From assembly GCA_043718785.1 (NCBI GenBank), contig JAYSVA010000426.1:1-44031 (forward strand): a stretch of DNA of 44,031 bases. Reading direction: 5' to 3'. The notes beneath the pieces are model-generated. The model did not search any database. It was not told where the DNA came from and saw only the letters and a list, made by a program, of their open reading frames with translations. This document shows positions 7,595 to 44,031 of this stretch, piece after piece; the stretch's first letter is position 1, and every line of letters begins with the position of its first letter. The stretch comes from Hyphomicrobiaceae bacterium. GTDB lineage: Bacteria > Pseudomonadota > Alphaproteobacteria > Rhizobiales > Hyphomicrobiaceae. The translations under genes were made by a program, and so were the position numbers.

Positions 7595-9244
7595 TCAACC
7601 GTGGCCGATCAAAGCGGTGATCGTCTCTAGCGTGTCGGCTTCAGCAGCGGGCTTGTCCCAGCGGAGCCGATGGATGCGCGGGAACCGCATGGCGACGCCC
7701 GATTTGTGGCGTGTCGAGGCCTGCACCGCGTCAAACGCAACTTCGAGAACGAGGCCCGGTTCGACGGCGCGGACGGGGCCATAGGTCGAGGTGGTATGCG
7801 CCCGCACCCATTTATCCAGGCGGCGCAGTTCATCGTCAGTAAAGCCAGAGTAGGCCTTGCCGACGGGCACCAGATCGCGCGTACTGTCGGCACCGTCCAG
7901 GCCGAGCCCCACGTCGCTCGATCCCGTTTTTGCGGGCAAAGTGCGCCAAACCCCGAATGTGTAGTCTGAATAGAATGATGATCGCTTGCCGGAGCCGCGC
8001 TGGGCATACATCAGCACACAGTCTAGCGTCAGGGCCGCGCGTTTCCACTTGAACCACTCGCCGCGCACGCGGCCCGGCTGATACGGGCTGGCACGGCGCT
8101 TCAGCATCAGGCCTTCGATGCCCTCCGCACGGGTGTTGGTCCAGATCTGGTTAAGCTCGTCGAAGCTGTCAAACGCTACCAGTGATGATAGATCTGTCAG
8201 CGGCGGTTGGGCCTGAGCGTGCCATGTTGCTAAGCGCTGGCGGCGAGCGGTAAACGGCAGTGCCCGCAGGTCGTCTTGGCCATCGTGCAACAGGTCGTAG
8301 AGTCGAACGTGGGCCGGGAAATCCCGCTGCATCTTCGCTGTCACAATTTTGCGGTTGAGGCGCTGCTGCAAGTCGTTAAACGGGGCAATCACACCACCTC
8401 GCATCACTAGCAGTTCACCATCGATGATGCAGTCGATGTCAGGGTTGGCTCGCATCAAGAAGGCCGTATGAACGTCCGGAAAGGCGGCCGAGATATCATC
8501 GCCTTGGCGCGAGAACAGGCGCACTTCGCCGCCGCGCGCCGACACCTGCACGCGAATGCCATCCCATTTCCATTCGGCAGCAAAGTCTGCTGCCACCAGC
8601 TTCGGCCAGTCCGCGTCTTCGATCGGGTGGGCCAACATCACCGGTTTGAATATTGGTTTTGTCCCCGGGTCTGGTTTGGCGCTGGTCCCCTCCAACCAGC
8701 TGAACAGCTCCAAGTAGGGCGGTGTTAACGCGTGCCACAGTTCCTCGATGTCGCCGACGTCCGTGGTAAAGGCGTCGGCTAACGCAGTCTTTGCCAGCCG
8801 CGCCGACACGCCAACCCGGGGCGCGCCGCCCAACAGCTTGATCAACGCGAACCGCCCGGCGACATCGAGCTGGTTGAGCAGTTGGCCGAGGTTCGCAGTG
8901 CGTTGTGGCGTGGTGCCCAGCCGCATCGTTTGCACGACCAGGTCAAGGGTTGGCGGTGTCGTCACCGGCTGGTCAGGCCACAGCAGTGCCACCGTCTCGG
9001 CCGTGTCACCAACGTAGTCGCGGCTCATCTTGTACAGCACCGGATCGATGAACGTGGCGATCAGTTCGGTCAACATCCGGCGTAGCGGCAGGTTCGGCAA
9101 CGGCACGCCGTCCGTTAACGCCGCCAGCGCCCAACCGCGATCCGGATCGGGCGCACTTCTGAAATAGGCCGCCAGCAGTGCCACCTTGCGGTTGCGGCTT
9201 TGGGTATACACGAGGCTATCCAGCAGCTGGGCGAAGGCGCGCAT
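7595..9244 (-). CDS. ATP-dependent DNA ligase (ligase-associated DNA-damage-response type)
   Basis: 549-aa ORF. Adenylation motif I (KxDG) is present as AAEWKWDGIRVQV. The N-terminus MRAFAQLLDSLVYTQSRNRK is typical of this ligase class. The start overlaps the stop of the upstream exonuclease gene (TAATG). Confidence 0.9.
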   Translation of the reverse strand: MRAFAQLLDSLVYTQSRNRKVALLAAYFRSAPDPDRGWALAALTDGVPLPNLPLRRMLTELIATFIDPVLYKMSRDYVGDTAETVALLWPDQPVTTPPTLDLVVQTMRLGTTPQRTANLGQLLNQLDVAGRFALIKLLGGAPRVGVSARLAKTALADAFTTDVGDIEELWHALTPPYLELFSWLEGTSAKPDPGTKPIFKPVMLAHPIEDADWPKLVAADFAAEWKWDGIRVQVSARGGEVRLFSRQGDDISAAFPDVHTAFLMRANPDIDCIIDGELLVMRGGVIAPFNDLQQRLNRKIVTAKMQRDFPAHVRLYDLLHDGQDDLRALPFTARRQRLATWHAQAQPPLTDLSSLVAFDSFDELNQIWTNTRAEGIEGLMLKRRASPYQPGRVRGEWFKWKRAALTLDCVLMYAQRGSGKRSSFYSDYTFGVWRTLPAKTGSSDVGLGLDGADSTRDLVPVGKAYSGFTDDELRRLDKWVRAHTTSTYGPVRAVEPGLVLEVAFDAVQASTRHKSGVAMRFPRIHRLRWDKPAAEADTLETITALIGHG

Positions 9245-10440: not shown

Positions 10441-11676
10441 TCAGCCCACCTGCTTGCAATGAGTTTCGCGGATCATCAGGGCGGCGAGACAGCCCAGGAT
10501 CGGCCCGATGACAATCGCGGTGAGGGCGAAGCGGTAGGCGCTGGCATCGTAAATGCGGGCACCGGCAACCATCTCACCAGCCCAGGCAAGGTCTAGCAGC
10601 CAGCCGATCAGCGTCTGAAACACGGCGCCGGCGCCGGTCATTAAGCAGTTAACGAACCCGATGGTGGTGCCGCTGAGATGGACGGGGTTGTGCTCGCGCG
10701 CGGCGGCAAAGCCGATGGTCTGCACCGATCCGCCGATGCCGCCGAGCAAACACAGTGCTGCCACCACGCTGACGGGGAGACCGGGAATGTAGACGATGGA
10801 CGTGATGCAAATGGCGGAGACCACTAAACCCGCGACCAGCGGCTTCTGCCGACTTTGCAACCGGTCCGATAGCCAGCCGTTGACCGGCGCAGCCAAGCCC
10901 CAGCCAACGAACATCATCGAAGTAACCGCCGCAGCGGTCGTTTTATCGAGCCCGTGCGTGACGCCCAGATAAGGCACGCCCCACAGCGCTGCAAATCCCA
11001 GCAGCGGGGCACCTGCGCCCAAGCCGACCAGGGAAATCAACCAGGTCTGAGGTTGCCGTGCGACCTGCACCAGGCCTTTGAGTACTCGGCCCGTATTGCC
11101 TGACCCGCGCTGACGGTCGCGCACCGTTGCCCATGCCATCGCGGCAATCAACACGCCGCCGCCCGCAAACGCGACCATGACGGAACGCCACCCATAGGCT
11201 TCGACGCCGAGCCGCACCGGGGCTTGGCCGATGACGCCGCCTGCCATGCCCATGAATGTGGCTAGTCCGCTGAGCAGGGCGAACCGGTGCGGTGGGAACC
11301 ACTGGCCGGCCACCGCCATGGAGCCGACGAGGCTGAATGCAGCCGAGGCCCCGATCAGGAACCGGCCGGCGGCAACAGCCCAGAATGAGGTGCTGATGGC
11401 GCACATCACGCAGCCAAACGCGCAGACCAAAGCCGCCAAGGTTATCAGACGGCGCGGACCGAACCGGTCCAGCATCAGCCCAACGGGGATCTGCATCCCG
11501 GCATAGCCATAGAAATAGAAGGCGGAGAGATTGCCGAGCAATGTGCTGCTGACGCTAAAGTCGCGCATCAGCTCATCGATCATGACGCTGGGCGAAACGC
11601 GCAACACCCAGGCGTAGAAGAAAAATATGGCACCTGTCGCCCAACCGAGCAGCGGTAACAGTAGGCTGCGATGCAT
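10441..11676 (-). CDS. MFS transporter
   Basis: 411-aa ORF that is almost entirely hydrophobic, with about 12 TM spans. An MFS loop 2-3-like motif is present (GLMLDRFGPRRL). Confidence 0.85.
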   Translation of the reverse strand: MHRSLLLPLLGWATGAIFFFYAWVLRVSPSVMIDELMRDFSVSSTLLGNLSAFYFYGYAGMQIPVGLMLDRFGPRRLITLAALVCAFGCVMCAISTSFWAVAAGRFLIGASAAFSLVGSMAVAGQWFPPHRFALLSGLATFMGMAGGVIGQAPVRLGVEAYGWRSVMVAFAGGGVLIAAMAWATVRDRQRGSGNTGRVLKGLVQVARQPQTWLISLVGLGAGAPLLGFAALWGVPYLGVTHGLDKTTAAAVTSMMFVGWGLAAPVNGWLSDRLQSRQKPLVAGLVVSAICITSIVYIPGLPVSVVAALCLLGGIGGSVQTIGFAAAREHNPVHLSGTTIGFVNCLMTGAGAVFQTLIGWLLDLAWAGEMVAGARIYDASAYRFALTAIVIGPILGCLAALMIRETHCKQVG

Positions 11677-27824: not shown

Positions 27825-29828
27825 ATGGAACGGGCCAAGACCGGACCACTGGTCAGCATCCGCAATCTGACGCTCGATGCGACGACGGCACAGGGAACCG
27901 CGCATATTTTGCGTGGTGTCGATCTTGATATCGGGCGCGGCCGCATTCTTGGTGTGGTCGGTGAATCCGGCTCTGGTAAGTCAAGTCTCGCATCGGCTTT
28001 GACTGGACTGCTGAGTGCCAATGTGGCGGTAACGGCCGGTGTCATTGACTTTGATGGCACCGATTTGTTGCAGCTGAGCGACCGGCAGATGCACGCCCTT
28101 CGTGGTGACCGCATCGCCATGATTTTCCAAGACCCGATGACGGCGCTGAATCCGCTATTCACGATTGCAACTCACCTCATCGATGTGATCCAGCGCCAGG
28201 CGCCGGAGACGAGCCGACGGATGGCTCTGGCAAAGGCTGAGGCAGTTCTGACGACGGTCGGGATTGCCGACGCGGAGATGCGCCTACAAGCCTATCCGCA
28301 TCAGTTATCCGGTGGCATGCGTCAACGTGTGATGATTGCGATGGCACTGCTGGTGGCGCCAGATCTACTGTTGGCGGACGAACCGACCACGGCACTCGAT
28401 GCGACTGTCGAAGCGCAGATCGTGAGCCTGCTGGCGGATCTGCGGCGGGATTTTGCCGGCACGATCGTTTTTATCTCACATCATTTGGGTTTGGTTGCTG
28501 AGTTATGTGATGATGTTTGTGTGATGTATGGCGGCACCATCGTCGAGGCGGGTGGCGTTGCGGATGTTCTAGTCAACCCGAAGCATCCGTACACAGCAGC
28601 GTTGCTGGCCTGCGAGATTGACGACGATCCACCAGATGGTCGTCTTATCTCAGTGCCCGGTGACGTGCCTGATCCGCGCTTCGAGGGGGCGGGTTGCATC
28701 TTCGCGCCCCGGTGCACGCACGCAGTGGAGCGCTGCCGCACCGAAGTTCCGCGATCCCGCGCTGCTGGTATGGGGCGAACGGCGGCGTGCCATCGGCTAG
28801 AAGATTTGAACTTGGCGGCGGCAGGTGGTGTTGTGGCGGGCAAACCGCCTGAACGCGTTGCGGCGCGGGCGGAGCAGCCTCTGATTACTTTTGATGGCGT
28901 GTCGGTGGTCTATGATGGTCGGGTACGGGCGCTGGATGACGTCAGGCTCAACCTGAGCCAAGGTGAGATCGTCGGGCTGGTCGGCGAGTCCGGATCTGGT
29001 AAAACGACGCTGTGCCGTACGCTGATCGGATTGACGGCGCCAACGGATGGCACTGTGCTGTTTGATGGCGAGCCCGTTGCAGCGCATCTGGCGACCCAAC
29101 CTCTGGCCTTTCGCCGCCGCATGCAGATGCTGCTGCAGGATGCAGTGGCGTCACTGTCGCCGCGTATGACGATCGGCCAAGCGTTGGAGGAGCCGCTGCG
29201 CATTCATAGTCTGCCACTGAACGAAGGGCGAGAGCGTTTGCGCTACATCGTTCAGCGGTTAGGTCTTTCCCCTGAGATCCTGCAGAAGTTCCCGCATCAG
29301 ATCTCGGGCGGGCAGGCCCGCCGCATTGGCGTGGCGCGGGCGCTGGTGATGCAACCGCAGGTGATTATTGCTGACGAACCGACGGCTGGTCTTGACGTGT
29401 CCGTTCAAGGTGAGCTGCTCAATCTGCTGCTCGATCTACAGCGGGAGTTTGAACTGACGTATTTGCTGGTCAGCCACAACCTTAATGTTATCCGCCGCGT
29501 CACCCACCGGACAACGGTGATGTACCTTGGCCAGATCGTCGAAGACGGGCCGACCAGCAGCTTGTTCGAGCAACCGGCGCACCCGTATTCGGCGGCGCTG
29601 CTATCGACCAGCCCCTCAGTTGATCCGACGCGGCGGCGTAACCGCATTGTGCTATCGGGGGAAATTCCGAGTGCTGTTAATATACCCAGCGGCTGCCGCT
29701 TCCACAGCCGTTGCCCGGTGGTGATGCCGCGCTGCAGAGTTGAAGTGCCGGCGCTGCAGGCCGTTGCGCCTGGGCGGGCTGTGCGCTGCCATTTCCCGTT
29801 CACACTCGGCCGGGCGGAGGCAAGCTGA
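27825..29828 (+). CDS. Fused double ATP-binding-cassette protein (DppD-DppF-like)
   Basis: 667-aa ORF with two Walker A motifs (GESGSGKSS, GESGSGKTT) and two signature motifs (LSGGMRQR, ISGGQARR). Each half ends with the Cys-rich oligopeptide-ABC C-terminal motif. Confidence 0.9.
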   Translation: MERAKTGPLVSIRNLTLDATTAQGTAHILRGVDLDIGRGRILGVVGESGSGKSSLASALTGLLSANVAVTAGVIDFDGTDLLQLSDRQMHALRGDRIAMIFQDPMTALNPLFTIATHLIDVIQRQAPETSRRMALAKAEAVLTTVGIADAEMRLQAYPHQLSGGMRQRVMIAMALLVAPDLLLADEPTTALDATVEAQIVSLLADLRRDFAGTIVFISHHLGLVAELCDDVCVMYGGTIVEAGGVADVLVNPKHPYTAALLACEIDDDPPDGRLISVPGDVPDPRFEGAGCIFAPRCTHAVERCRTEVPRSRAAGMGRTAACHRLEDLNLAAAGGVVAGKPPERVAARAEQPLITFDGVSVVYDGRVRALDDVRLNLSQGEIVGLVGESGSGKTTLCRTLIGLTAPTDGTVLFDGEPVAAHLATQPLAFRRRMQMLLQDAVASLSPRMTIGQALEEPLRIHSLPLNEGRERLRYIVQRLGLSPEILQKFPHQISGGQARRIGVARALVMQPQVIIADEPTAGLDVSVQGELLNLLLDLQREFELTYLLVSHNLNVIRRVTHRTTVMYLGQIVEDGPTSSLFEQPAHPYSAALLSTSPSVDPTRRRNRIVLSGEIPSAVNIPSGCRFHSRCPVVMPRCRVEVPALQAVAPGRAVRCHFPFTLGRAEAS

Positions 29829-32018: not shown

Positions 32019-34172
32019 TCACGCTGCACTTTCGCGAACGAAGACCTTGAGAACGCGCCGCCACGTCGCAGCAAAAAAGCTTTCCGCTGCGCCCTGGACA
32101 TTAACCACGCCGCGCAACCGAACGGACGGCACGGGTTCCGTTGGCGCAACCGCAAGCGTGACGAGGTATTGAGCGTTCACCGGCACAAGACGTTGGCGAT
32201 TGTCCGGCATCGCTTCGATGCGGCCGCTGTGGGCACTGGTCAACTCGGGTGGTTCGATGTGCGCAGTGCCACTGACGGCGATTGACTGCAGTACCGCTGA
32301 CACCGAGGACGCCTGCGGTACATCCGGAACAAACTGCCCTGGCGCTCCGATTTCAATTCGCCACAGGTCCGCCTCGGCCACATATCCCGTGATGGCCAGC
32401 CGTTCCGCACCACGGAGCAACGCAATCCGCTCTTTCGCAGCAATCCATTGTTGAGGCCGCAGGTTCGGATTGAGCTCGGCGATGATCCCATCGGCTGGAG
32501 CACGGACGTCGAGCTCCTGCTGCTCCTTATTCAACCCGTCGAGTTTTTTTCGCAATGATTGGACGGCGCTTTCCAGGACGAGGCTGTCATCCCGGTCTTC
32601 CTTATCAGCGAACCGGCGCGCCAGCCGCATCTGAACAGCCTCAAGCTTGGTTATCGCAATTCGCCGCTCGCTCTCAAGGTCGGTTGAGCCTAATTGCACC
32701 AATTTATCGCCTTTTCGGACGCTCTGACCTGCTGTTGTGTAGATGGTAATCACCTGCGCGGCCCGTGGCGGGTAGATGTGGGTAACATCAGCGGCCTCAA
32801 GCATTGCCGGAATTTTTACCGTCGATGACCATGGCACCACAAACAGTAGCGCCAAACCGAGAGCGCTCGCCATGGTGACGCGCGCCCTGCTGGATTTTAT
32901 GATCAAATTTCGCATGGCCCACCATTGAGTCAGTTCACCAAATACTGGTTTAGCAACGAAATATCCGATCTCGAACACGAACAGGATAACGCCGAGCGCT
33001 TTGAAGAAATATGCGTAGACCGCTAGCGCGATTCCCGTAAACAGGATTAACCGGTATAGCCACACGGCCCATGCATAACCGATTAGAAAACGCTGGCGGA
33101 GGGGTGGGAATACTTCTGGCGGTGGACTTTTGATACCTAGTAAGACACGTCGCATTTTCCAGACGCCGAGATCAAACGAGCGCGATTGTAGATTTTCAAC
33201 TCCCAGCAAATCAGAGAAAATGTAGTACCCGTCAAACCGCATAAATGGATTGAGGTTGACGCCAATACTCATGATCCAACTCGACGTCGCAATCATAAAA
33301 GCGGTTTGGCGCATAAATCCGTCTGGCAGAAAAACCCAGAGGAAAGTCGCTAGGCACGCCAGGGCAAGTTCGACGCCGACGCCAGCGATATCGATTGCGA
33401 AACGCTGACGGCGGTCGGTGAGCCGCCAAGCATCGGTGACGTCGGTATATAGTATCGGCGCCATCATCATAAATGCGATACCTATGACCGGCACGCGGCA
33501 ACCATAGCGCACGGCGGTGTAGGCATGACCAAGCTCATGTAGGATTTTGACGCAGAACAACGTGACGGCAAATTGGGCAATTCCCGCCGTCGTCGCGAGC
33601 CCTTGAGCACCCCGCAGGAACTCATCCCACTGCCTCGATATCAACATTAGCCCGATCAATCCGAGCAACCCGATAGCCCACTGTACGCCCCGGTGCGCAC
33701 CAAAATCCGCGACCCATCGTGTTGATTGCAGAAAACGTTCAGGGGAGAACAACGGGATCTTGAAGAACAAATAATTGTGCGCCAGTGCCATCACAGCGCT
33801 GTGTTTCCGCTGCTTGGTTGGATCGAAGTGTTGACGCCAGTCATCGGTTTTGGTTTGCGTCAGATTATGTTGATCAAGAAAGCTCGCGAGTTCTTCAATA
33901 TCTGCTGGTGTGAATGGCTGTTGCAATCGAATTGACGCGGCGGCGCAAAGTTGAGCAACCGTCGGATGCTCGCGCCAAATTGACAGAATGGTGCATGTGG
34001 CGTGATCAATGGCTACAAAGCGATGTCGTAGCATGTCGTAGACGCGCCACGTTGGTTGGCCGTCCGCGTCCGGCGGTCCAGCGCTTATCGACAGATCTTC
34101 GCGTAGTTGCGGCAGCTGACCCGTTGGTGCTGCAGAATTCTTTGGTGGTAGGTTGGTCACAGTCCGACCCAT
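32019..34172 (-). CDS. Fusion protein: cytoplasmic N-domain, M50 (site-2-protease) polytopic core and a C-terminal HlyD-type periplasmic adaptor
   Basis: 717-aa ORF with an ATG start. HELGH is encoded at 33525..33539; I confirmed this by reverse-complementing atgaccaagctcatg. The second M50 motif, NLNPFMRFDG, is at 33228..33257. Multiple TM spans are present. The C-terminal ~280 aa has lipoyl-like, coiled-coil and barrel character (VRKGDKLVQLGSTDLESERRIAITKLEAVQMRL...DVRAPADGIIAEL). Confidence 0.85.
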   Translation of the reverse strand: MGRTVTNLPPKNSAAPTGQLPQLREDLSISAGPPDADGQPTWRVYDMLRHRFVAIDHATCTILSIWREHPTVAQLCAAASIRLQQPFTPADIEELASFLDQHNLTQTKTDDWRQHFDPTKQRKHSAVMALAHNYLFFKIPLFSPERFLQSTRWVADFGAHRGVQWAIGLLGLIGLMLISRQWDEFLRGAQGLATTAGIAQFAVTLFCVKILHELGHAYTAVRYGCRVPVIGIAFMMMAPILYTDVTDAWRLTDRRQRFAIDIAGVGVELALACLATFLWVFLPDGFMRQTAFMIATSSWIMSIGVNLNPFMRFDGYYIFSDLLGVENLQSRSFDLGVWKMRRVLLGIKSPPPEVFPPLRQRFLIGYAWAVWLYRLILFTGIALAVYAYFFKALGVILFVFEIGYFVAKPVFGELTQWWAMRNLIIKSSRARVTMASALGLALLFVVPWSSTVKIPAMLEAADVTHIYPPRAAQVITIYTTAGQSVRKGDKLVQLGSTDLESERRIAITKLEAVQMRLARRFADKEDRDDSLVLESAVQSLRKKLDGLNKEQQELDVRAPADGIIAELNPNLRPQQWIAAKERIALLRGAERLAITGYVAEADLWRIEIGAPGQFVPDVPQASSVSAVLQSIAVSGTAHIEPPELTSAHSGRIEAMPDNRQRLVPVNAQYLVTLAVAPTEPVPSVRLRGVVNVQGAAESFFAATWRRVLKVFVRESAA

Positions 34173-35593
34173 TGGCGCAGGAACGCAACGGGACGACGCA
34201 AGATGTAGTAAATCGTCGGCACCCGATCACCGTAAAGTTGGGCTGTACCGCGGATCCCGAGCCGTGGTGGCGTCACCGTACCATCGGCGAATGTTGCAAC
34301 AACGCGAAAGGCGACGCTGCCCCCCTCCCGTAGTTTTGCTTGATAGTCGGCATGGACAATTGTTGCTTCGCGTGGGCGCAGAGGATCAGAGTCAAGAAAA
34401 AGTGTTACGCGCTTATTGTCAGATAAAATAATCGAATCAGCGACTGGGACATCGATGCGAACTTCGACTTGCGCCGGATCGGCAATCTCCATAATGCGTT
34501 CGCCGGTCGAAACCGGTTTGCCCATAAGGTCGCGTTTGTCGCCGAATATAGCGATGCCTGACCGAGTGGCAGTAATTTGGGCGCGCCCCAATAGGTCGCG
34601 GGCATAGTCGCGCTCGGCGAGCTTTACGGTCAGTTCGGAACGAGCGAGCGCTAAGTCATGGCGACCACGGACGTCGGTCATCGCCAACAGCATATTTTTT
34701 TTAATTCGCGCATCGGCAACTTGTAATTCACGTTCGGCGACTTCCATCCGGTTACGTAGTACCGTGTCGGCGAAACGGATCAAAACGTCGCCAGGCGCAA
34801 CCGTGCTGTTCGGTGCGATGGGAATTTCTTGAATCACACCGTCGATGGGTGCGGTGACGACGCTTGGCTCGCGTGCACCAATTTCAAATGGCGCGAGCGT
34901 CGTCATTGAGACGGGGAATAGACATACGATCGTCACCGCTAAAGCTGAAGCGGCGGCGCGTTTGCGGCTGATCTGAAATCTCGGCCGGACCGCCTTGGAG
35001 GTCGCGATCCAATACCAGGCGTGTGCGAATGTTATGGATAATCTCTGAACCAGCGCCGTCTCGCCGGATGTCCAAGGCTCCGAGCGGACGAGCAGTACGC
35101 CTGCGAACAATGCGCTCGTTCTGTCAAGGAGTGGAAACCATAGAGCTTCTCGAAATGGGTAGGATGACGTCAGTGGATCGCCAGCATCACCGTAACTGGG
35201 TAGCGTGAACTCGCGTACACTGCTTAATCCGACATCGGCGTTGGCTCGAGCGACAGTACGTTCTAGCCACTGCATGAGCGGGACTTGGCGGTCCACAGCT
35301 AGCATCGCCGAGGCTGCTTCAATTTGTAGGTCGCCGACAGCGGCTTGTCGCAGTACGAACACCTGCTGTGCCCGTGTCAACTTGCGCGTCTCATTGGCGA
35401 TCAACTGAGCCAGCTCCGCGACCGAGGCGGCGGCGCGCGCTTCGCCTTCGACGCGTAACAGAACAACAACGGGACTGGACTCGCTGCTGGTTTTCTGAGC
35501 CCCAGCTGCAACTTGGGCGATATCGAGCCGCACGGGCTGTCCGGTGCGGGTCGCATTGCCAGGGGAGCCTTTCGGCGGCGGAGATGCGGTCAT
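34157..35593 (-). CDS. HlyD-family adaptor with a ~200-aa cytoplasmic N-terminal domain (GAF-like pattern) and one TM span
   Basis: 478-aa ORF with an ATG start 3 nt after the upstream stop. The TM span is around residues 213-235 (AAASALAVTIVCLFPVSMTTLAPF). An HlyD pattern follows (VTAPIDGVIQEIPIAPNSTVAPGDVLIRF...coiled coil...ITATRSGIAIF). The N-domain ends with ALWFPLLDRTSALFAGVLLVRSEPWTSGETALVQRLSITFAHAW, which resembles the C-terminal half of a GAF fold. Confidence 0.75.
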   Translation of the reverse strand: MTASPPPKGSPGNATRTGQPVRLDIAQVAAGAQKTSSESSPVVVLLRVEGEARAAASVAELAQLIANETRKLTRAQQVFVLRQAAVGDLQIEAASAMLAVDRQVPLMQWLERTVARANADVGLSSVREFTLPSYGDAGDPLTSSYPFREALWFPLLDRTSALFAGVLLVRSEPWTSGETALVQRLSITFAHAWYWIATSKAVRPRFQISRKRAAASALAVTIVCLFPVSMTTLAPFEIGAREPSVVTAPIDGVIQEIPIAPNSTVAPGDVLIRFADTVLRNRMEVAERELQVADARIKKNMLLAMTDVRGRHDLALARSELTVKLAERDYARDLLGRAQITATRSGIAIFGDKRDLMGKPVSTGERIMEIADPAQVEVRIDVPVADSIILSDNKRVTLFLDSDPLRPREATIVHADYQAKLREGGSVAFRVVATFADGTVTPPRLGIRGTAQLYGDRVPTIYYILRRPVAFLRQWVGL

Positions 35594-35596
35594 GGC

Positions 35597-36394
35597 TCAC
35601 CGTTTCTCGTCGGCGAAGTGGGCGGTGCCGCTCATTCCGGGCAGCACGCCCTGAGCTTGCCGCTTGAAGATTGCCGCAAGTTTGATGGTTTGACTTATTG
35701 GGTCAACCGCCGCGCCCGTGCGCGTCACTTCAGCGTCAAACGCAACGTTGAGTTCATCAACGAAGAATTGAAACGGCAACCCAGGTTTCATCCAACGTGC
35801 CCATGAAGAGGGAACGATCAAATCGATTTCGGGGCTTTCAGTCGAGGCTATCGCGAGGAAAGGCTTGCCGGGCTGCGCTGTTTCATACTTCTGCAGATTA
35901 AGTTCAACAATGCGGCCATCAAAAGGTGCGATAACCGTGCATTGATCTAAAGGACTCCGCAATCCGGAACTCTCGGCGATAGCTTTGGCGAGCCGTGCTT
36001 CGGCGACTTCGAGATCATTTTTGCCGACTGACTGCGCGCGTTGCAAGAGGCGGTATTTATCAAGTGTGAGTTGCATTTCGAGCTGTTGGGCTTCAGCGGC
36101 CGCCAAAGCTGCGCGCTGACGGCGACAATCAAACTCAAGAATTGTACTGCCTTTTTTGAAGGCCTCACCTTCTTTGAGATGAACTGCGGACACGCGTGTC
36201 GCCAATTCAGTCGAAATCGATGCCTGTTCGACAGCGTGAATAATACCGCGCGCCGCACTGGAACGGGCGGTAGCGTTTTCAGTGGTTGGACGCGGTTCGC
36301 TCTGCACTGGCGCGGCAACGACCCACAATGTTGCGAGAGTCAGGACGTGCCAGCCCGGATTAACGCAGCGCCAGACTGATCTTGCGATTTGCAC
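35597..36394 (-). CDS. Small periplasmic HlyD/RND-type adaptor subunit
   Basis: The ORF-track frame is 35597..36412 and begins with TTG. I prefer GTG 36394, preceded by GAGGGG with a 6-nt spacer, which gives a signal-peptide-like N-terminus (..WHVLTLATLWVVAAPVQS). Adaptor pattern: LKEGEAFKKGSTILEFD...coiled coil...VIAPFDGRIVEL. Confidence 0.7.
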   Translation of the reverse strand: MQIARSVWRCVNPGWHVLTLATLWVVAAPVQSEPRPTTENATARSSAARGIIHAVEQASISTELATRVSAVHLKEGEAFKKGSTILEFDCRRQRAALAAAEAQQLEMQLTLDKYRLLQRAQSVGKNDLEVAEARLAKAIAESSGLRSPLDQCTVIAPFDGRIVELNLQKYETAQPGKPFLAIASTESPEIDLIVPSSWARWMKPGLPFQFFVDELNVAFDAEVTRTGAAVDPISQTIKLAAIFKRQAQGVLPGMSGTAHFADEKR

Positions 36395-37883
36395 CGAATT
36401 CCCCTCGCTCAAACGACAGTGTTTTCAGTTGCTGGGCGAGTTCTTTAACACCTGCATCGACTGGTTTCTCGCTGTCGAATGGGTCGAGCCCAACGGAAAC
36501 GAACACATTAGCGAAGGCATTCTGCATATTGGCAAATGCGATATCGCGTTTGACTTCAGCAACAAGGGTGTTGAGCTCTTCGCGGATTAGAGTTTGTTCA
36601 CTGATGCGGTCAGCGGATGCTTCTTGGCGCATCTGGCGCACTAATCGATCCTGCACATCGAGATAATCTCGCGCAGTAACCAGCTCTGCTGACATGTTGA
36701 GATAGCGAATACGGCTCACGTAAACCTGGGTCATCACGGCCATGGTGAGCGCCAACGCGCGGGCATTGAGCAGGGCATCCTGACCGTGGACCACATCGCG
36801 TTTCGCTGGGTATTGGAATACGCGCAGCACATTCCAAGATGCCTTTGTACCCCAGCTAACCCACTGGTTATGAGCTAGATACTTATTGGCGTCATGGCTG
36901 GCCCCGGCATACAGCTGGATGCCCGGCAATAGCTCTAGTAGTGCCGCATGCGCTTCATGCTGATTAATGCGTTGTTGGTAGGCGATATCCCGAAGTTCAG
37001 GACGGTTCAGTAACGCTGCAGCCGTCATGTCCTTCGCATCGATCTCGATGACCGGCGCTTTAGCGTCGAGGCCTTCGCCAGCAAGCGAGAAGTCTGTGCC
37101 AGGTGCCAAGTTCATCAGCGCTGCGAGTTGGGTTTTAGCCACGCTCAATTCGTGCTGTAGCTGCTGGGCGGTACGCCGGATTTCGATTAATTCGCGTTCG
37201 TACGTCAGGGCGGTAATCGGCGAAGCATCTGGCGATTGCGACAATTTCTTTGCATTCGACTGTGCAGTCTTAGTACGTGCTTCAAGTGATCTGAGTTTGT
37301 GGACCATGCGGTCTGAGCTGACAGCGCGCCAATAGGCTGTCCGGGTATCTTCGATGATTCGTTGCATGACTTTACGGCGCGTTTCCGCGGCAATTAGAAC
37401 TTTGTCGGCTGACTGCCGTGCGCGCACATACGATAAACCGAAATCAAGAATGTTCCAGCTGAACGTGATGTCTGATGTGGACGATTGGCGCTCACGTGAA
37501 ATCGTGCGCGGCGCTGATTCGCGGCCGGTGTCCAGCCGACGTTCGCCGACTGAGTGGTCATTATTGCGTTGCGCGAAACCCGAATTGACAACAGCGCCCG
37601 GCAACATCGCATAATGCGCCAACTTTAACTCGGTTGTGCGTAGTTGGGTCTGCATCATCTCAACCTTGTGATCGAGATTATATTTGACCGCGCGCGCCAT
37701 CGCTTCGTGCAACGAAATAGCGCCGTGAACGGGTTCCTGGTTCACTGTAACTTTGGCCATGTTGCTGTTGGTAATAATATCCAACTGGCCGAACGAAAGA
37801 GGTTGAGGCGATAATGCGCACGCCGACAAACTTGTCGCCAAGAGCGTGGCAACGATGACAGTTTGGGTCGTTTTGTACGGCAT
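36360..37883 (-). CDS. TolC/NodT-family outer-membrane channel lipoprotein (paralogue 1)
   Basis: The ORF-track frame is 36360..37922 and begins with GTG. The ATG at 37883 gives MPYKTTQTVIVATLLATSLSAC with an LSAC lipobox. It has the two-repeat OEP-like helical pattern and is closely similar to the upstream paralogue (for example DITFSWNILDFGLSYVRARQ versus DATFSWNVLDFALSYVRAQQ). Confidence 0.8.
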   Translation of the reverse strand: MPYKTTQTVIVATLLATSLSACALSPQPLSFGQLDIITNSNMAKVTVNQEPVHGAISLHEAMARAVKYNLDHKVEMMQTQLRTTELKLAHYAMLPGAVVNSGFAQRNNDHSVGERRLDTGRESAPRTISRERQSSTSDITFSWNILDFGLSYVRARQSADKVLIAAETRRKVMQRIIEDTRTAYWRAVSSDRMVHKLRSLEARTKTAQSNAKKLSQSPDASPITALTYERELIEIRRTAQQLQHELSVAKTQLAALMNLAPGTDFSLAGEGLDAKAPVIEIDAKDMTAAALLNRPELRDIAYQQRINQHEAHAALLELLPGIQLYAGASHDANKYLAHNQWVSWGTKASWNVLRVFQYPAKRDVVHGQDALLNARALALTMAVMTQVYVSRIRYLNMSAELVTARDYLDVQDRLVRQMRQEASADRISEQTLIREELNTLVAEVKRDIAFANMQNAFANVFVSVGLDPFDSEKPVDAGVKELAQQLKTLSFERGEFGANRKISLALR

Positions 37884-37947
37884 GGTACCTGCGATCACAT
37901 TGAGTGTTAGGACGTGACGCACAACGCTAGCTGATGATAAAGTATAA

Positions 37948-39834
37948 TTACTTCGTTCCGGTGTAAGGGCCAGTTTTCTTACTGCCCTTATCCTTCATAC
38001 TACCGGCGGTTGGAGCGGTATCACCGGGCCAGAGCCAATCCCACGCTGATGTTTCAGCAGGCTTCGGTGCGGCCTTCCTTGGAGTTCCGCCGCGTGCCGC
38101 AAGTGCGGCCTGCCGGGCTTGCGCCGCCTCTTGTTTGATGCGGTCGGTCGCAGCTTTCCTAAGTTGAGCCGCCTCGTCATGAGCGCGTTTCGCTTCGGCC
38201 TTTTGCAGGTTGACTTGTTCGGCCTTCAGGCGCGCAGCAGCTTCGGCAATCCGCTGTGCTTCGGCACGGCGGCGGCGATCCTCTTCGGCCTGACGGCGAC
38301 GTTGCTCCTCGCGGGCTTTTTCTAATTCGAGCATGTAGCGGCCGCGGTCGGAAACCGCGCTGCGGTTCGACCAATGTGAACTCAGATGCTGTGCCAGCAC
38401 CTTCACGTCCATTTTGAGATCGACGGATTTGCCTTGAAGGTCGTAGCCCATTGATGTCATCAGGTTCGACGACGCTGTCTGAAGGCTGCCGACAGCCAAG
38501 TCGTGTTGAACCTCTGCAACAAGAAGGTTCATCTCTTCACGAATTAGGGTCTGCTCACCAATCAATTCGGCTGACTTTTCGGCGCGAAGATGTTGGACAA
38601 GTTGCTTTTGAACGCTCAGATAGTCCCTGGCTGTTACAACTTGTTCAGCGAGATGATTATAGCGGGTGACGCTGATGTAGACCTGCGTCATAATCGTCAT
38701 AGTAATCGCTAGTGCTTTTTGGCTGAGCACATCTGCCTGTGCTTCAATAGCCGTGCGCTTGGCGGGCAGCTGGACGATCTTCAAAAGATTGCCAGCCGCC
38801 GACACACCCCAATCGAGCCAATTGTTATTCAGCAGCAACGACGTGTCATCGAATGCGGCAGTGCCATAAACACGCAAGCCAGGCAGTAATTCCACAATAG
38901 CCGCAGTGGCTTCACGCTCGGTAATGCGTTGCTGGTAGGCAATGTCGCGAATCTCTGGGCGGTTGAATATTGCCTCAGCAACCATTTCGCGTGGCGACAT
39001 GCTGAATACGGGGGGATCAGGATTATAATCTCTATCGACTAACGCGAATTCCGTACCCGGTGGCACGTTCATCAGTGCGGCTAACTGCGATTTGGCAAGG
39101 CGTAGCTCGTTGCTCAGGCGTTCGGCGGTTTGTCGTATTTGAACGAGTTCTCGCTCGTAGGTCAGTGCGGTCAGTGGTGTTTCTGCGCCGACTTTCGCCG
39201 CTGCTCGTGTACTAGCGACGCTGCGTTTGACGCGAGTTTCGAGAGTTTCGAATTTCTTGACCATCCGGTCGCAGCTCACGGCGCGCCAATAAGCAGTTCT
39301 GGTGTCTTCTATAATACGTTGCGTTACTTTGCGGCGGGCTTCCTGGGCGATTAGATGCTGGTCGGCAGCCTGCTGCGCACGTACATATGAAAGTGCGAAA
39401 TCTAGGACGTTCCAGCTAAACGTTGCGTCGCCAGAATTGAAGGCTCTGTCTTGCGACGTGGAAAAAGCGGGGACTTCGATCCCGGTCGGAAGGTCAAGAC
39501 TTGCAGTTGATAAATCATTGTTGCGTGCGCTGTAACCGGCGTTAGCAACAATTCCCGGCAGCATAGTGCTAGCGACCTGGCGAGATTCTTGAGCGCGCAG
39601 TGCTGCCTGCATCACGGCGACTTGGTCATCCAAATTGTACTTAAGCGCCCGGGCCACCGCTTCATAGAAGGAGATTTGCCCCTGGACAGGCGTTTGATCG
39701 GCTGTGAGGTGACTCAAATTGGCTTCTGTCAATCGCGAGAGATGCTCGTCGGACAGCGGCGACGGAGCCATCGCGCAGCCACCCACCATCAACGGCAGTG
39801 CAAACAATCCTGTGATGGTGTGCAAGCGTTTCAT
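37948..39834 (-). CDS. TolC/NodT-family outer-membrane channel lipoprotein (paralogue 2) with a ~128-aa charged C-terminal extension
   Basis: The ORF-track frame is 37948..39870 and begins with GTG. The ATG at 39834 gives MKRLHTITGLFALPLMVGGC with a lipobox. The body is paralogous to 36360..37883. The tail is LELEKAREEQRRRQAEEDRRRRAEAQRIAEAAARLKAEQVNLQKAEAKRAHDEAAQLRKAA... Confidence 0.8.
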   Translation of the reverse strand: MKRLHTITGLFALPLMVGGCAMAPSPLSDEHLSRLTEANLSHLTADQTPVQGQISFYEAVARALKYNLDDQVAVMQAALRAQESRQVASTMLPGIVANAGYSARNNDLSTASLDLPTGIEVPAFSTSQDRAFNSGDATFSWNVLDFALSYVRAQQAADQHLIAQEARRKVTQRIIEDTRTAYWRAVSCDRMVKKFETLETRVKRSVASTRAAAKVGAETPLTALTYERELVQIRQTAERLSNELRLAKSQLAALMNVPPGTEFALVDRDYNPDPPVFSMSPREMVAEAIFNRPEIRDIAYQQRITEREATAAIVELLPGLRVYGTAAFDDTSLLLNNNWLDWGVSAAGNLLKIVQLPAKRTAIEAQADVLSQKALAITMTIMTQVYISVTRYNHLAEQVVTARDYLSVQKQLVQHLRAEKSAELIGEQTLIREEMNLLVAEVQHDLAVGSLQTASSNLMTSMGYDLQGKSVDLKMDVKVLAQHLSSHWSNRSAVSDRGRYMLELEKAREEQRRRQAEEDRRRRAEAQRIAEAAARLKAEQVNLQKAEAKRAHDEAAQLRKAATDRIKQEAAQARQAALAARGGTPRKAAPKPAETSAWDWLWPGDTAPTAGSMKDKGSKKTGPYTGTK

Positions 39835-39870
39835 GAGTTCCAGAGCCGGAGGGCTGGTTCGAACGCGCAC

Positions 39871-40336
39871 AGGTGTTTGCTGGGAGTGTCAAAATTTGCG
39901 GAAAAACTTGCCGAAGCGCTTTGTAACCGACAGCATTCTTTAATCGAATAGGTGATTCGGTGTGGATGATTACTGTGTTTTGGGGATAACTGATGTTTGA
40001 ATAGTATTGTACGTGCAGCCCAAGCGGCGGCTCCTGTCGGGTCCGGAAAATCTGGGAGGTGAGCAATTGAGGCGTTAACAGGTCTAATGGCGTCATATCA
40101 CGAAGCGAGGACAAATTTGAAAAGGGAACGATTGCGGAATTGTGTCGTATTTTCATTTGTTTGTGGTGTTTCGTTGTATTTCTGCACACATATCATGTGT
40201 CTTGGCATATCACCTGTGCTCGGAGTGTGTTGATCGTGCAGGACAATCTCTACTGCTTGTTAACCGAATTGTCTCATTTCTGGACGTTGAACAGTGGCGC
40301 GTCATCCGCAGCAACGACCAAATTCGGACAATTAAA
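39871..40336. promoter_or_regulatory. AT-rich divergent intergenic/promoter region between the envelope operon and the giant adhesin gene
   Basis: My spot counts give 24/60 GC for 39961..40020 and 21/60 GC for 40141..40200, against 40/60 in a typical left-hand line (3541..3600). Short palindromes are present (cgaat-aggtg-attcg near 39944; acacat-atc-atgtgt near 40185). No convincing ORF. Confidence 0.45.
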
Positions 40337-43300
40337 ATGTCGATCTTTCAGCGCATTGTGGGTTCTAGCAAAGTTATGAAGTCCGCTAAGGACGCTGACG
40401 TAACTGTTGCTGCCTCGCGGCATCGGCTGGTTTACCGTGCTCTTGAGCCACGTATGGTGTTTGACGCGGCCATGCAGGCGACCATTGCTGAAGCCTCTGC
40501 GACTGATAATACCGTGATCGCCGACCCGGTTAGCCAAGTGGTCCCGCCGACGCAGGATATGGCGGTCGTTCAGGCGCTGTCGGACATTGCGGCGGCAGCC
40601 GGGGCGGGGATGTCTGCGGTCACAGGCGGCGAAACGTTCGTTTTCGTTGATCCTCGCGTTGCGAATTTTCAGGATATCGCCTCGGCGCTGCCCGCCGGCG
40701 CAACGATTGTGATGCTAAACAGCGAAGTGGGCGGATTCGAGCAAATCGCTGCCTACCTTGAAGGGCGCACGAATGTTGCTGGCATTCAGATTTTCTCGCA
40801 CGGCTCAGCGGCGCACCTGCAATTGGGTGCGGACATTCTGGATAATACGAATGTCGCGGAGCACACCGCCGCACTTCAGCAAATTGGCTCTGCTCTGAGC
40901 GAAAATGGCGATATCTTGCTCTATGGCTGCGATATTGCGGCCGGAAACGACGGGTTGCAATTCATCGAAGCGCTTGCTGCCCTCACCGGTGGCGACGTTG
41001 CGGCATCGACCGACGCAACAGGTGCCGCTGGCCTCGGCGGCGACTGGATTCTCGAATTGTCGACCGGCGCGATTGAGAACGCTGTGGTTGCCGCGCCCGA
41101 TTACGGTGCATTGCTGGCGCTCGTCGCGGCCAATGACGTCGCCACCGTTCAGGCCAATGCGACAGTCGGCGTCAACGGTAACGTTTTGACCAACGACACC
41201 GGAACGGGCGCGAGGACCGTGACTGAGGTGCATGGCCGTGCCACGTCAGTCGGGGTGGCGTACGCGACGTCGTACGGGTCAATCACGATGAATGCTGACG
41301 GCACATACGTCTATACTGTGAACGTCAACAATGCCACTGTTCGTGAACTTGCTGCCGGTCAAACGATTACCGACATCATTTCTTACACGGCGCGGGATAC
41401 AACAACCGCTTTGCCCGATTTTGGCTATTTGACGGTGACAATCAATGGTGTGACGGATGCGCCTTTGGCATTTGACAACTTTGGTTCGGTCACTCCGGGC
41501 ACTGTGCCCACAAGTTCCGGCAACGTGCTGCTGGACGCAGGCGCGGGCGTCATCGATAGTATTGACCGGCCACAATCGCAGTTCCGATGGGAAAACCTAT
41601 ACGCGAACGGTGCAACGATTGTTGGCAACCAAACTGTTGATGGCGTTGGCGTTGCGGTGACAACGACAAACGCTTCGGGCATTTCTTACACGGCAGTTGC
41701 GCAGACCACTGCAACGCAGGGTGGCCATACTGGTTATGCAGCGCTCACGATTGATCCGACAGTGCTTGTGTATACCGCCCCTACAGTCGGGTTCGCATTT
41801 GCGCAACCCGTCATAAACCTCTCATTTGGTCTCCTTGACGTCGATAGTGGCGCGCCGAGCTGGCAAGACCAAGTGACCATCACTGGTACACGTGGCGGTG
41901 TCCCTGTCGCTTTCACAGCGCAATTCTCAGGATATGACACGCGGGCAGGCAACTCATTTTTCGGCAACAACGGTGGCGTCGGCAATACTGATGCGCTCGG
42001 CAATATCGTCATTGTCTTCAGTGGCGCTGTCGATAACGTCGTTATCGCTTACAATGACGGCCCTGGCGCGACCGCTGCAAACCCAGGCGGCCATCTAGTC
42101 GGGATTACGGATCTAACCTGGCAGAACCCGAACGCGGTCACCACGATCCAGATTGCCGGCACGACGGTGCCTGTCGGTGGCGTTACCGTCGCAACACTGT
42201 ATGGCAGCATCACCATGCAGCCGAGCGGATCGTATGTTTACACCGTTGATCCGACCAACCCGGCGGTTATCGCATTGCCGACTGGCGCAACGTTGATCGA
42301 CAGCATCCCTTATACAATCCGGGATGCGCTGCTTCAGACCGCCAGCGCGTTTCTCAGCATCACTGTCAATGGTGTTAACGAGGTGCCAGCCCTGGATCTT
42401 GACGCGAACAATTCATCGGGCGTCACGGGTTCCGGCTATACAGCCACTTACGTTGAAAATGGCGCAGGTGTCAGCATTGCCGATGCCGACACCGCAATTG
42501 CTGATCTTGATACATCCAGCTCTATTGCGTCCGCGACCATCGTGCTGACGAACCGCCAAGTTGGCGACGTATTGAACGTTGGCGTATTGCCAGCTGGTGT
42601 GACTGCCGTGATTGACACGTCAAATCCGGCGAGCGTTTCCGTAACCCTGACCGGGGTTGATAGCAGGGCTAACTACGCCAGCTTCATCAATGCAATCCGC
42701 TTCTCTAACACGTCGGACGCATTGGTTGGAGTTGATCGGAACATCACCGTTGTTGTCAACGACGGCATCGCCAATTCAAATGTTGCTACGTCAACTATTA
42801 GAGTTACCCCCGTCAACGACGCGCCGGTTTCGACGGTGCCCGCAGCCCAGACCACGCTCGAGGACACAGCGCGTGTATTCTCTGCAGCCAACGGTAACGC
42901 TATCACGATCAGCGATATTGATGCAGGCACCGTCGGTGTGCAGACGGTGGCCTTGTCAGTTGCGCGCGGCACACTTACGCTTGGTGCAACAACCGGACTG
43001 ACTGGCTTAACCGGCAACAGCACGGGTACGATCACGTTTACCGGCACCGTCGCCCAGGTTAACGCGGCTATGGACGGCCTTTCGTATCTGAATACGGCTG
43101 ACTACAACAGCACCGGTTCAGGCACGGCGGGGGCTGATGTTCTTACGGTGAGCGTCAGAGATGACGGCCGGGACTCCGGCGTGTTGGCAACCAATGGTGT
43201 TCAAACTGGGCTTGTCCGGACTGTCGATATCAACATCACCGCCGTTGCCGATATCACCGACGATACGCTGACGACGCTTGAAGACACGGCCGTCGTATTC

Positions 43301-44031
43301 AATGCTATCACCGGCACTGCAGGAGCCACGGTCGATAGCTTCGAGAATGCCGGGCGTGCTGTGACCGCGGTCACACAAGGCGCGCGTGGCACAGTCACCT
43401 TCCTGGCCAACGGTCAGATCACCTACACACCAAATCCGAATACTAACGGCCCGGATACGTTCACCTATACCGTGACGTCTGGTGGAGTTTCGGAGACTGC
43501 AACCGTTACGGTCAATGTCACGCCCGTCAACGACGTGCCTGTCGCCGTGAACGACATTGCATCGACACTCGAAGACACGCCAATCACAATCCCCGCTACA
43601 ACGCTGTTGTTGAACGACACCGATCTTGACGGCGATGCATTGACGATCACATCGGTGCAGGCACCCGTCAACGGCACTGTTGCGCTGGTCGGCGGCAATC
43701 CGGTGTTCACGCCGACGCCGAACTACAACGGCCCGGCGAGCTTCACCTACACCATCTCTGACGGCAACGGCGGCACCGCGACCGCAACCGTCAACATCAC
43801 TGTCACACCTGTCAATGACCCACCGGTCGCGGTCAACGACATCGGCTCGACGCCGGAAGATATTGCGATCACGATCCCGGCTACGACGCTGCTCTCGAAT
43901 GACACAGATATTGATGGCGATACACTCACCATCACCTCCGTCCAGGGTGCAGTCAATGGTACGGTCACGTTGGTTGGCGGCAACCCCGTGTTCACGCCGA
44001 ACGCCAATTACAACGGCCCGGCAAGCTTCAC
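40337..44031 (+). CDS. Giant secreted repeat adhesin, 5' part only (DUF4347-type N-domain, VCBS repeats, tandem-95/cadherin-like repeats); runs off the right edge
   Basis: Absent from the ORF track because there is no stop in the window. I verified by hand that the frame is open from the in-frame TGA at 40118..40120 onward. Candidate starts are ATG 40337 or ATG 40376 ([32 protein letters not shown]...). The DUF4347-like block runs [16 protein letters not shown]...[15 protein letters not shown]...[39 protein letters not shown]...GGDWILE. VCBS-type units are [16 protein letters not shown]...[10 protein letters not shown] and [16 protein letters not shown]...DSIPYTIRD. Repeated VTPVNDxPVAVND...LLxNDTDxDGDxLTITSV... 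modules follow. Confidence 0.85.
   Translation, partial: [1231 protein letters not shown]
43517..44031 (+). repeat. Tandem 285-bp (95-codon) coding repeats inside the adhesin gene
   Basis: Unit starts are gtcacgcccgtcaacgac at 43517 and gtcacacctgtcaatgac at 43802, a period of exactly 285 nt. The encoded units are near-identical ([48 protein letters not shown]... versus [48 protein letters not shown]...). More diverged modules begin near 42797 and 43231. Confidence 0.85.

Follow-up and report, generated by a model that had tools for sequence, protein, structure and literature searches.

The stretch of DNA analysed here (the window; 44,031 nucleotides, positions 1 to 44,031 of contig JAYSVA010000426.1, assembly GCA_043718785.1, from a Hyphomicrobiaceae bacterium) contains five tightly packed minus-strand genes and, divergent from them, the beginning of a gene for a giant cadherin-like surface protein. 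The five genes encode two TolC/NodT-type outer-membrane lipoproteins, two periplasmic adaptors of the HlyD family (membrane fusion proteins, MFPs) and a third adaptor that is fused to an intramembrane zinc protease of family M50. We suggest that the five genes and the giant gene make up one conserved, leader-guided machine for the export or processing of a giant surface adhesin, a proposal that we judge to have about an even chance of being right. The initial annotation of this DNA had delimited the five genes correctly; it had missed the probable cargo gene, which starts at 40337, just outside the region it described (32019 to 39834).

The five-gene operon and its fusion protein

Re-reading the open reading frames (ORFs) of the window gave five minus-strand ORFs, all in one direction, with positions and junctions matching those initially annotated. 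In the order of transcription, the junctions are a gap of 25-64 nt, an overlap of 35-53 nt (a gap instead, if the small MFP starts at 36328), a gap of 3 nt and an overlap of 16 nt, and they are of the operon type. The arrangement is not due to chance, since it recurs in 80 of the 80 genomes surveyed for synteny, each locus being taken with 10 kb on either side. The survey covered Hyphomicrobium, Rhizobium, Methylobacterium, Azospirillum-like bacteria, Nitrospira, Zetaproteobacteria, Pseudomonas, Halomonas and Pelagibacteraceae. The gene order small MFP, GAF-MFP, M50-MFP is kept throughout, and a giant with the same N-terminal region adjoins the module either upstream or downstream. We counted components in the 43 loci that extend at least 6 kb on either side of the M50-MFP gene. 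Its neighbours include the GAF-MFP in all 43, the small MFP in 40 and a giant in 38, while three more loci have other large ORFs clipped by the locus edge. The adaptor context noted in the initial annotation is thus a recurrent one, accompanied by neither a pump nor a small precursor gene, but the pair of TolC genes is confined to the lineage of the window: two outer-membrane factor (OMF) copies occur only here and in the two closest relatives (L004 and L005), and one is the norm. The family of the fusion protein is large, with at least 5129 clusters at 50% identity (E<=1e-30), of which the best 150 are nearly all full-length fusions of ~700-750 aa; a separate homologue search returned >4781 matches. 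Database annotation of the family is generic ('HlyD family...', 'site-2 protease family protein', KO yydH).

The fusion (32019..34172, minus strand, 717 aa) was characterised with Pfam, NCBIfam, an AlphaFold2 (AF2) model, Foldseek and a PDB profile search. The AF2 model of residues 1-445 (pLDDT 83.9, pTM 0.74) begins with a small domain, residues ~25-105 (33858..34100, minus strand), of beta-beta-beta-alpha-alpha-alpha topology (strands 28-32, 41-46 and 51-55; helices 57-64, 72-83 and 89-101) that is predicted to be cytoplasmic. The structures in the PDB that resemble it are crystallised complexes of the TbiB1 RRE (the recognition element of RiPPs, peptides that are made on the ribosome and modified afterwards), from a lasso-peptide pathway, with its leader (5v1v/5v1u, probability 0.84-0.96, TM-score 0.61-0.69), and we suggest that the domain is a PqqD-like RRE. 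Pfam PqqD (PF05402) is weak in two of 39 close homologues and reaches 28.7 bits, over the cut-off of 23.4, in a 28%-identical Methylosinus homologue; several relatives carry the PGAP label 'PqqD family protein'.

Seven long predicted helices, with a beta-hairpin after the HExxH helix, bear both motifs of a site-2 protease (S2P), and Foldseek places this core with MjS2P (3b4r_A, probability 1.0, E 1.6e-3). Peptidase_M50 (PF02163) matches residues 201-316 with 29.4 bits, above its gathering score of 27.2. The zinc-binding and catalytic motif HELGH occupies residues 212-216 (33525..33539, minus strand) and the second motif, NLNPFMRFDG, with the predicted third zinc ligand Asp314, residues 306-315 (33228..33257, minus strand). 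Both motifs are invariant across 39 homologues (45-82% identity), including H212, E213, H216, N306, P309, D314 and G315, and both are intact, as the initial annotation had held. The adaptor part, residues ~450-717 (32019..32825, minus strand), comprises a lipoyl domain, a short hairpin and a beta-barrel; it matches HlyD_3 (residues 556-634, 40.4 bits, cut-off 22.2) and HlyD_D23 (residues 461-614), and residues 447-646 have PDB profile matches to ZneB, MacA and HlyD. All 39 homologues match Peptidase_M50, and all 38 that are full-length match HlyD_3. Since the RRE is predicted to be cytoplasmic and seven transmembrane (TM) helices follow it, the C-terminal adaptor should be periplasmic. On these models, a single chain combines leader binding, intramembrane zinc proteolysis and a periplasmic adaptor function.

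The two other adaptors are encoded upstream. The small MFP (35597..36412, minus strand, 265-271 aa) has an N-terminal signal peptide, matches HlyD_3 (43.4 bits) and HlyD_D23 (35.4 bits), and scores 98 bits against NCBIfam TIGR01730 (RND_mfp), which exceeds the family cut-off. The GAF-MFP (34157..35593, minus strand, 478 aa) consists of a ~200-aa cytoplasmic GAF-like domain, a single TM segment (residues 213-231) and a periplasmic adaptor (HlyD_3, 47.5 bits). HlyD_3 is thus found in all three adaptors, at 40-47 bits. Of the domain families named in the initial annotation, M50, HlyD_3 and the OMF family OEP are confirmed by Pfam, whereas GAF (PF01590) stays below its cut-off in the window protein (16.8-19.5 bits against 22.4). 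Among orthologues of the GAF-MFP, 7/37 match GAF (best 3.9e-5) and 3/37 match GAF_2, and an orthologue from the sister family described below reaches 50.1 bits (E 5e-13).

OMF1 (37948..39834, minus strand, 628 aa) is a TolC/NodT-type lipoprotein that matches Pfam OEP in two stretches (84.3 bits) and NCBIfam outer_NodT. Its frame is open upstream to a GTG at 39870; the ATG at 39834 yields the lipobox LMVGG↓C and agrees with the gene call on the source contig, which is also 628 aa. NCBIfam identifies a charged TolA-like C-terminal extension of ~130 aa. Residues ~505-628 (37948-38340, minus strand) are made up of this Ala/Glu/Arg/Lys-rich extension and a Lys/Gly-rich tail, which is unusual among OMFs. 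OMF2 (36360..37922, or from an alternative ATG at 37883, minus strand) is a TolC-type lipoprotein with the lipobox LSA↓C and an OEP match of 94.4 bits. Between the operon and the giant gene lies a divergent intergenic region (39871..40336), read directly from the sequence and presumed to be a shared regulatory region; a consensus scan for promoters and terminators gave no signal above chance.

The giant protein and its N-terminal leader

The giant gene (40337..44031, plus strand) is open for 1231 codons without a stop and runs off the window, past which the source contigs do not extend on this side. In this 5' part, Pfam finds DUF4347 (E 5e-49) and then Cadherin_5, Big_9 and Cadherin_4. The protein is probably the cargo of the module. 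Alignment and a six-frame scan define its N-terminal leader (40337..40501, plus strand) as a basic stretch, the box ALEPRMVFDAA (40442-40471) and an acidic linker. The N-termini of the giants have this plan in common: a basic stretch (on average 5.1 K/R versus 1.4 D/E), a box with the consensus sL.aLEpRi.FDgAaaAT (in short, LEPRxxFDGA) and an acidic, low-complexity linker. Six-frame scans of the loci detected the box in 48 of the 81 sequences, and giants with a visible N-terminus carry it. Each occurrence lies at the N-terminal end of a giant ORF, one per locus, or two where two giants are present. The same scans found none away from giant N-termini, and no small ORF bears it.

Close behind the leader lies DUF4347 (residues 102-252; 40640..41092, plus strand), delimited by Pfam and alignment, in which an SHG motif (His155) and a YGC motif (Cys198) are invariant. 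A PDB sequence search with this region gave no match. The AF2 model has a core pLDDT of ~90, and the closest structure that Foldseek returned is Tce1 of P. aeruginosa (9qpe_G, E 6e-5), along with the cysteine protease domain (CPD) of TcdA (3ho6), caspase-3/-7 and legumain. Tce1 (PA0256) itself has a DUF4347 domain (PMC8262886) and is regarded as a putative CPD-like cysteine protease (PMC13323088). We predict that DUF4347 has the CPD/caspase-like (clan CD) cysteine protease fold with a His-Cys dyad. Given its modelled likeness to Tce1 and the CPD proteases, the cargo probably brings its own processing protease. Tce1, the nearest fold, is an effector of a type VI secretion system, and cyanobacterial DUF4347 proteins begin directly at the domain, with no leader.

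The rest of the giant is variable. Only the leader and DUF4347 stay constant; the passenger domains range over Cadherin, Big_12, VWA, Laminin_G, beta-helix and a LapA domain. The C-termini show at least three unrelated endings (L013-L083), none of them RTX-like. The 27 giants with complete C-termini contain 0-2 GGxGxDxUx motifs each, none of which falls in the last 400 residues, and Pfam HemolysinCabind has no match in the giants. As both passengers and C-termini differ, the N-terminus is the common denominator and the obvious candidate for the ligand and substrate of the RRE-protease. Of the three types of ending, Alphaproteobacteria have a conserved domain of ~100 aa ('...DG..V....I.VD..TGEI...'), Nitrospira and others a hydrophobic segment bearing P.W..FDPLPVL, and Pseudomonas a Gln/Leu-rich tail.

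In a 540-aa protein of Sphingomonas (P0139; L084-L087), a leader and DUF4347 are followed by a segment with 35% identity to the C-terminal adaptor of an M50-MFP. We considered it as a 'Rosetta stone' fusion of cargo and machine and rejected it: the gene is isolated and resembles a deletion relic of an operon running from giant to fusion.

The pairing of giant and machine is also seen on plasmids. Plasmid p2 of Azospirillum brasilense Sp7 (L089) has a giant of 4195 aa in an operon with TolC and three adaptors. Plasmids of E. coli and Citrobacter (L090/L091, E. coli G5, NZ_CP060066.1; L099, NZ_CP081785.1) carry a giant of 3,668-4,459 aa, with the N-terminus MTTIKNRRLRPRAHRFALESRQLFDGAA..., and four machine genes. 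Among 5426 complete E. coli genomes, 24 have the system at >=99% identity, in 21 plasmid and 4 chromosomal places, and diguanylate cyclase and EAL genes reside on the same E. coli plasmids. In Pseudomonas loci, the OMF gene comes after the giant gene. Between the fusion and giant genes of Pseudomonas (L049, L040, L054 and others) and of Azospirillum (L089), a GNAT acetyltransferase and 'phage tail collar' or tail-fibre-like proteins recur, and Pseudomonas loci also have a PMT_2 glycosyltransferase and a sulfotransferase there. The recurrence of these accessory transferase genes hints that the cargo is modified.

A missing pump and a sister family with a SecA paralogue

To our knowledge, every envelope-spanning machine built of TolC and adaptors has been taken to have an ABC, RND or MFS pump at its base. 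The initial annotation had found no such pump in the operon, and the absence extends well beyond it: a motif scan of all ORFs and Pfam searches of flanking genes gave no ABC exporter, no RND pump and no recurrent MFS transporter in the operon or within 10 kb on either side in the 80 orthologous loci. The Walker-A/signature scan of these loci returned only peripheral importer-type ATPases of 248-369 aa and one false match to an adaptor, while the candidate flanking genes proved to encode kinases, TPR and AAA proteins, DUF6638, CheA and anthranilate synthase. An EmrAB-OprM-like set upstream of the module in Pseudomonas GM18 recurs within Pseudomonas only. There is no transporter within 16 kb of the module on the Azospirillum plasmid, and an E. 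coli plasmid with the giant and four machine genes, taken over its full 69 kb, encodes no ABC, RND or MFS pump and no SecA-like protein. As initially annotated, the sole protein of the window with Walker-A and LSGGQ motifs belongs to an importer; it is a double-nucleotide-binding-domain Opp-type ATPase (27825-29828). A 12-TM MFS_1 transporter (10441-11676, minus strand) belongs to the metabolic part of the window, 20 kb from the operon and unlinked to it; an ATP-dependent DNA ligase (7595-9244, minus strand) in the same part is likewise unlinked.

What might drive the module is indicated by a sister family, found in Methylosinus (plasmid pMSC49a, L092), Methylocapsa, Rhodoplanes, Mesorhizobium, Aminobacter and one uncultured genome (L094-L098). 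Its gene order is DUF3467, GAF-MFP, PqqD/M50-MFP, SecA paralogue, small MFP and sometimes an OMF. The protease motifs are intact (HEIGH and NPLLRFDG). The SecA paralogue is short (~665 aa) and has SecA_DEAD (E 1e-103), PPXD and P-loop_SecA domains; PGAP often labels it 'prepilin peptidase', which looks like a misannotation. All six loci examined contain the SecA paralogue and place this operon beside giants of 7,800-9,900 residues. The two giant N-termini that are visible have a basic stretch followed by ...LLFDPLEPRLLLNADV and ...IIFDTLEPRVLLNADV, with a box of the LEPR type and without DUF4347, and thus tie the leader box to the common core of RRE-M50-MFP and GAF-MFP. A PDB sequence search with DUF3467 gave no match, and in the window's own family DUF3467 was seen in one case only (L032). 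SapC-family genes, known from the type I secretion locus of the Campylobacter S-layer, adjoin the sister system in L095 and L098, and in L098 a contractile-injection-system gene cluster follows it directly.

The SecA paralogue inside the sister operon argues that these machines translocate protein and makes a SecA-type ATPase a plausible motor. The window's family has no SecA-like gene close to the module, so that SecA, if used there, must be the housekeeping enzyme. The initial annotation had concluded that the protease itself would be the inner-membrane partner of the duct; this now appears overstated, an ATPase acting in trans being a real possibility.

We therefore suggest the following mechanism on the basis of the parts described above. 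The cargo would be a cadherin-like giant whose N-terminal region comprises the basic stretch, the box (LEPRxxFDGA) and the CPD-like domain DUF4347. Its leader would be captured by the cytoplasmic PqqD-like domain of the fusion and cut at the inner membrane by the seven-TM site-2-type zinc protease, while the adaptor domain of the same chain would join the duct to the outer-membrane channel. The three different adaptors would probably form a mixed ring linked to one or two TolC-type lipoproteins, through which the giant would pass, and the GAF-like cytoplasmic domain may sense a signal and gate export. A SecA-type ATPase in trans, here housekeeping SecA, would be the likeliest energy source because the sister family has a SecA paralogue in its operon; ratcheting driven by extracellular folding could contribute. 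One of two functions offered in the initial annotation, in which cleavage releases a substrate with a leader into the TolC duct, fits the PqqD-like domain and the conserved leader of the neighbouring giant.

Several observations weigh against this mechanism. It is argued entirely from the linkage of genes and from predicted folds. For the small RRE, Foldseek gives poor E-values (0.5), and the window fusion itself scores below threshold against Pfam PqqD. The hydrophobicity of the leader is too low for an ordinary Sec signal, and the leader could be removed by DUF4347 rather than by the M50 protease. An OMF gene lies next to the M50-MFP in only 24 of the 43 loci counted. Neither a channel for translocation nor a motor was identified in the window's family, and no SecA-like gene occurs in the window or in the 80 loci. 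Finally, the C-terminus of the window giant lies beyond the window, and that protein may have a C-terminal signal for a type I secretion system (T1SS).

Known systems and alternative explanations

The systems closest in outline are the T1SSs for giant adhesins (LapA/LapBCE with LapD-LapG, SiiE/SiiCDF and the ice-binding adhesin MpIBP), in which a TolC-family channel and HlyD-family adaptors likewise stand beside a giant repetitive adhesin. As a further likeness, retention or release may be governed by a protease together with an N-terminal element of the adhesin, and a cytoplasmic sensor may provide inside-out control. The module differs from them in having no ABC transporter, three different adaptors rather than one, and a cargo with a conserved N-terminal LEPR-box leader and no RTX repeats or recognised C-terminal signal. 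Its protease also differs from the periplasmic LapG-type cysteine protease of the Lap system, being an M50 enzyme of the inner membrane that forms one chain with an adaptor. The likeness raises the alternative that the module retains and releases its giant: the protein would be exported by other means, its leader held at the envelope and threaded through TolC, and a signal through the GAF-like domain would cause the M50 protease or DUF4347 to cut the tether. This would account well for a conserved element at the N-terminus of the cargo, a sensor-like cytoplasmic domain fused to an adaptor, two proteases at the point of tethering and a locus with no motor, and it would suit the E. coli plasmids, which have diguanylate cyclase and EAL genes. 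However, none of the 80 loci has a separate export system linked to it, the giants have no RTX repeats, and the SecA-type translocation ATPase of the sister operon points to export rather than mere tethering. Pfam and NCBIfam searches of the five products gave no LapG-type (BTLCP) protease or LapD receptor, and neither is among the recurrent neighbours. We regard such a switch as improbable, although it is the alternative to be taken most seriously.

It is somewhat less probable still that the module belongs to a conventional T1SS or tripartite system and that the ABC or other pump is encoded elsewhere, with the M50 protease as an accessory leader peptidase comparable to the C39 domain of peptidase-containing ABC transporters (PCATs). 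The OMFs, with OEP scores of 94.4 and 84.3 bits, and the three HlyD-type adaptors are standard T1SS parts, and the window stops inside the cargo gene, leaving the remaining genome beyond view. A dedicated ABC transporter is nonetheless missing from the window, from the 80 diverse loci, from the Azospirillum locus and from a small E. coli plasmid that has the cargo and four machine genes, and this is what makes a distant pump unlikely; the cargo, moreover, bears an N-terminal signal in place of RTX repeats. With PCATs that work with a CvaA-type adaptor and TolC (colicin V and microcins), the module has in common an N-terminal leader cut by a protease domain within the export machine, and a duct completed by adaptor and TolC. 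In PCATs, however, the protease is a C39 cysteine peptidase fused to the ABC pump and the cargo is a small peptide; the module instead has an intramembrane zinc protease that bears an RRE and is fused to an adaptor, and a cargo thousands of residues long. Tripartite efflux pumps have an energised inner-membrane transporter, and none is encoded with the adaptors here. TriABC-OpmH of P. aeruginosa is a tripartite pump with two different adaptors, and its example of several non-identical adaptors encoded together suggests a mixed adaptor ring; the RND transporter at its base and its small-molecule substrates have no counterpart in the module.

The best sequence relatives of the protease are the M50 leader peptidases of RiPPs (the daptide peptidase MpaP, YydH/EpeP and TglG), in which a PqqD-like domain also precedes the M50 core. 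In NCBIfam, residues 44-401 match best to NF041824, the intramembrane leader peptidase of daptides, at 149.8 bits, well short of the equivalog cut-off of 300. EpeP is thought both to cleave and to export its peptide (PMC10885120). No adaptor fusion has been described for these enzymes, and the hosts of the module are Gram-negative, with OMF genes alongside. One could imagine the module as a RiPP-like exporter or maturase, in which a short, unannotated precursor is bound by the RRE, cut by the M50 protease and expelled through the duct, the giant being an unrelated neighbour; the pairing of RRE and M50, and the closest curated families (daptide MpaP, and also YydH/LiaK), are indeed those of RiPP enzymes. 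But the surveyed loci have no recurrent precursor peptide, conserved small ORF or modifying enzyme, the only leader-like conserved peptide in the six-frame scans is the N-terminus of the giant, and a giant is linked to the machine in two diverged families, which leaves this explanation with very little probability.

With the site-2 proteases RseP, SpoIVFB and MjS2P, the fusion has in common the HExxH and NxxPxxxxDG motifs in TM helices and, for MjS2P, the fold; it has extra TM helices, the RRE and the C-terminal adaptor, and no PDZ or CBS domain or nearby regulator substrate. SpoIVFB takes an N-terminal pro-sequence off a protein that is not a membrane protein. Site-2 proteases classically signal, and the initial annotation had offered an envelope-spanning signalling device, acting by regulated intramembrane proteolysis of a regulator, as its second possibility; this finds no support and is the least probable of the alternatives, since no sigma/anti-sigma pair or other membrane-tethered regulator is conserved beside the module in the 80 loci, Pfam detects no PDZ domain in the fusion or the other operon products, and the domain ahead of the protease is of the RRE type that binds peptide leaders.

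A further comparison is with the accessory Sec systems (SecA2/SecY2), which serve giant serine-rich adhesins of Gram-positive bacteria. The sister family similarly pairs a dedicated SecA paralogue with giant adhesins that bear unusual, long N-terminal leaders, and some loci of the window's family hold glycosyl-, acetyl- and sulfotransferase genes. Unlike accessory Sec, the window's family has no SecA paralogue or SecY2, its hosts are diderm, and adaptors, an OMF and the M50 protease are among its parts.

The module is thus a member of none of these classes: T1SSs and tripartite pumps have the transporter that is missing here, while PCATs have in common with it only the logic of a protease within the machine, and RiPP maturation only the RRE-M50 pair. 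No published description of it was found in the searchable literature (the subscription literature lies outside that coverage), in agreement with the initial annotation, which knew of no characterised system of this composition. We see a real chance that it represents a categorically new secretion pathway. The fully specified version, a diderm secretion system with an LEPR-box leader, PqqD-like recognition, S2P cleavage and a three-adaptor duct to TolC, free of ABC, RND and MFS pumps and driven by a SecA-type ATPase (housekeeping SecA here; in the sister family, the short SecA paralogue, partnered by DUF3467), is a tentative proposal that we think more probably wrong in some part than right throughout.

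Where other TolC/adaptor machines sit on a pump, this one sits on a predicted leader-binding intramembrane protease, and its sister branch encodes a SecA paralogue within the operon. The machine is not a rarity: E. coli and Citrobacter have it on plasmids, it occurs as well in Pseudomonas, Azospirillum, rhizobia, Methylobacterium, Nitrospira and Halomonas, and it is tied to some of the largest bacterial proteins, of 1,200 to >9,000 residues, which are likely to shape adhesion, biofilms and the colonisation of hosts or roots. If our proposal is correct, it would add a route of secretion, define a new N-terminal targeting signal by which cargo could be predicted from sequence, give a role to DUF4347 and provide, in the E. 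coli plasmids, a tractable model.

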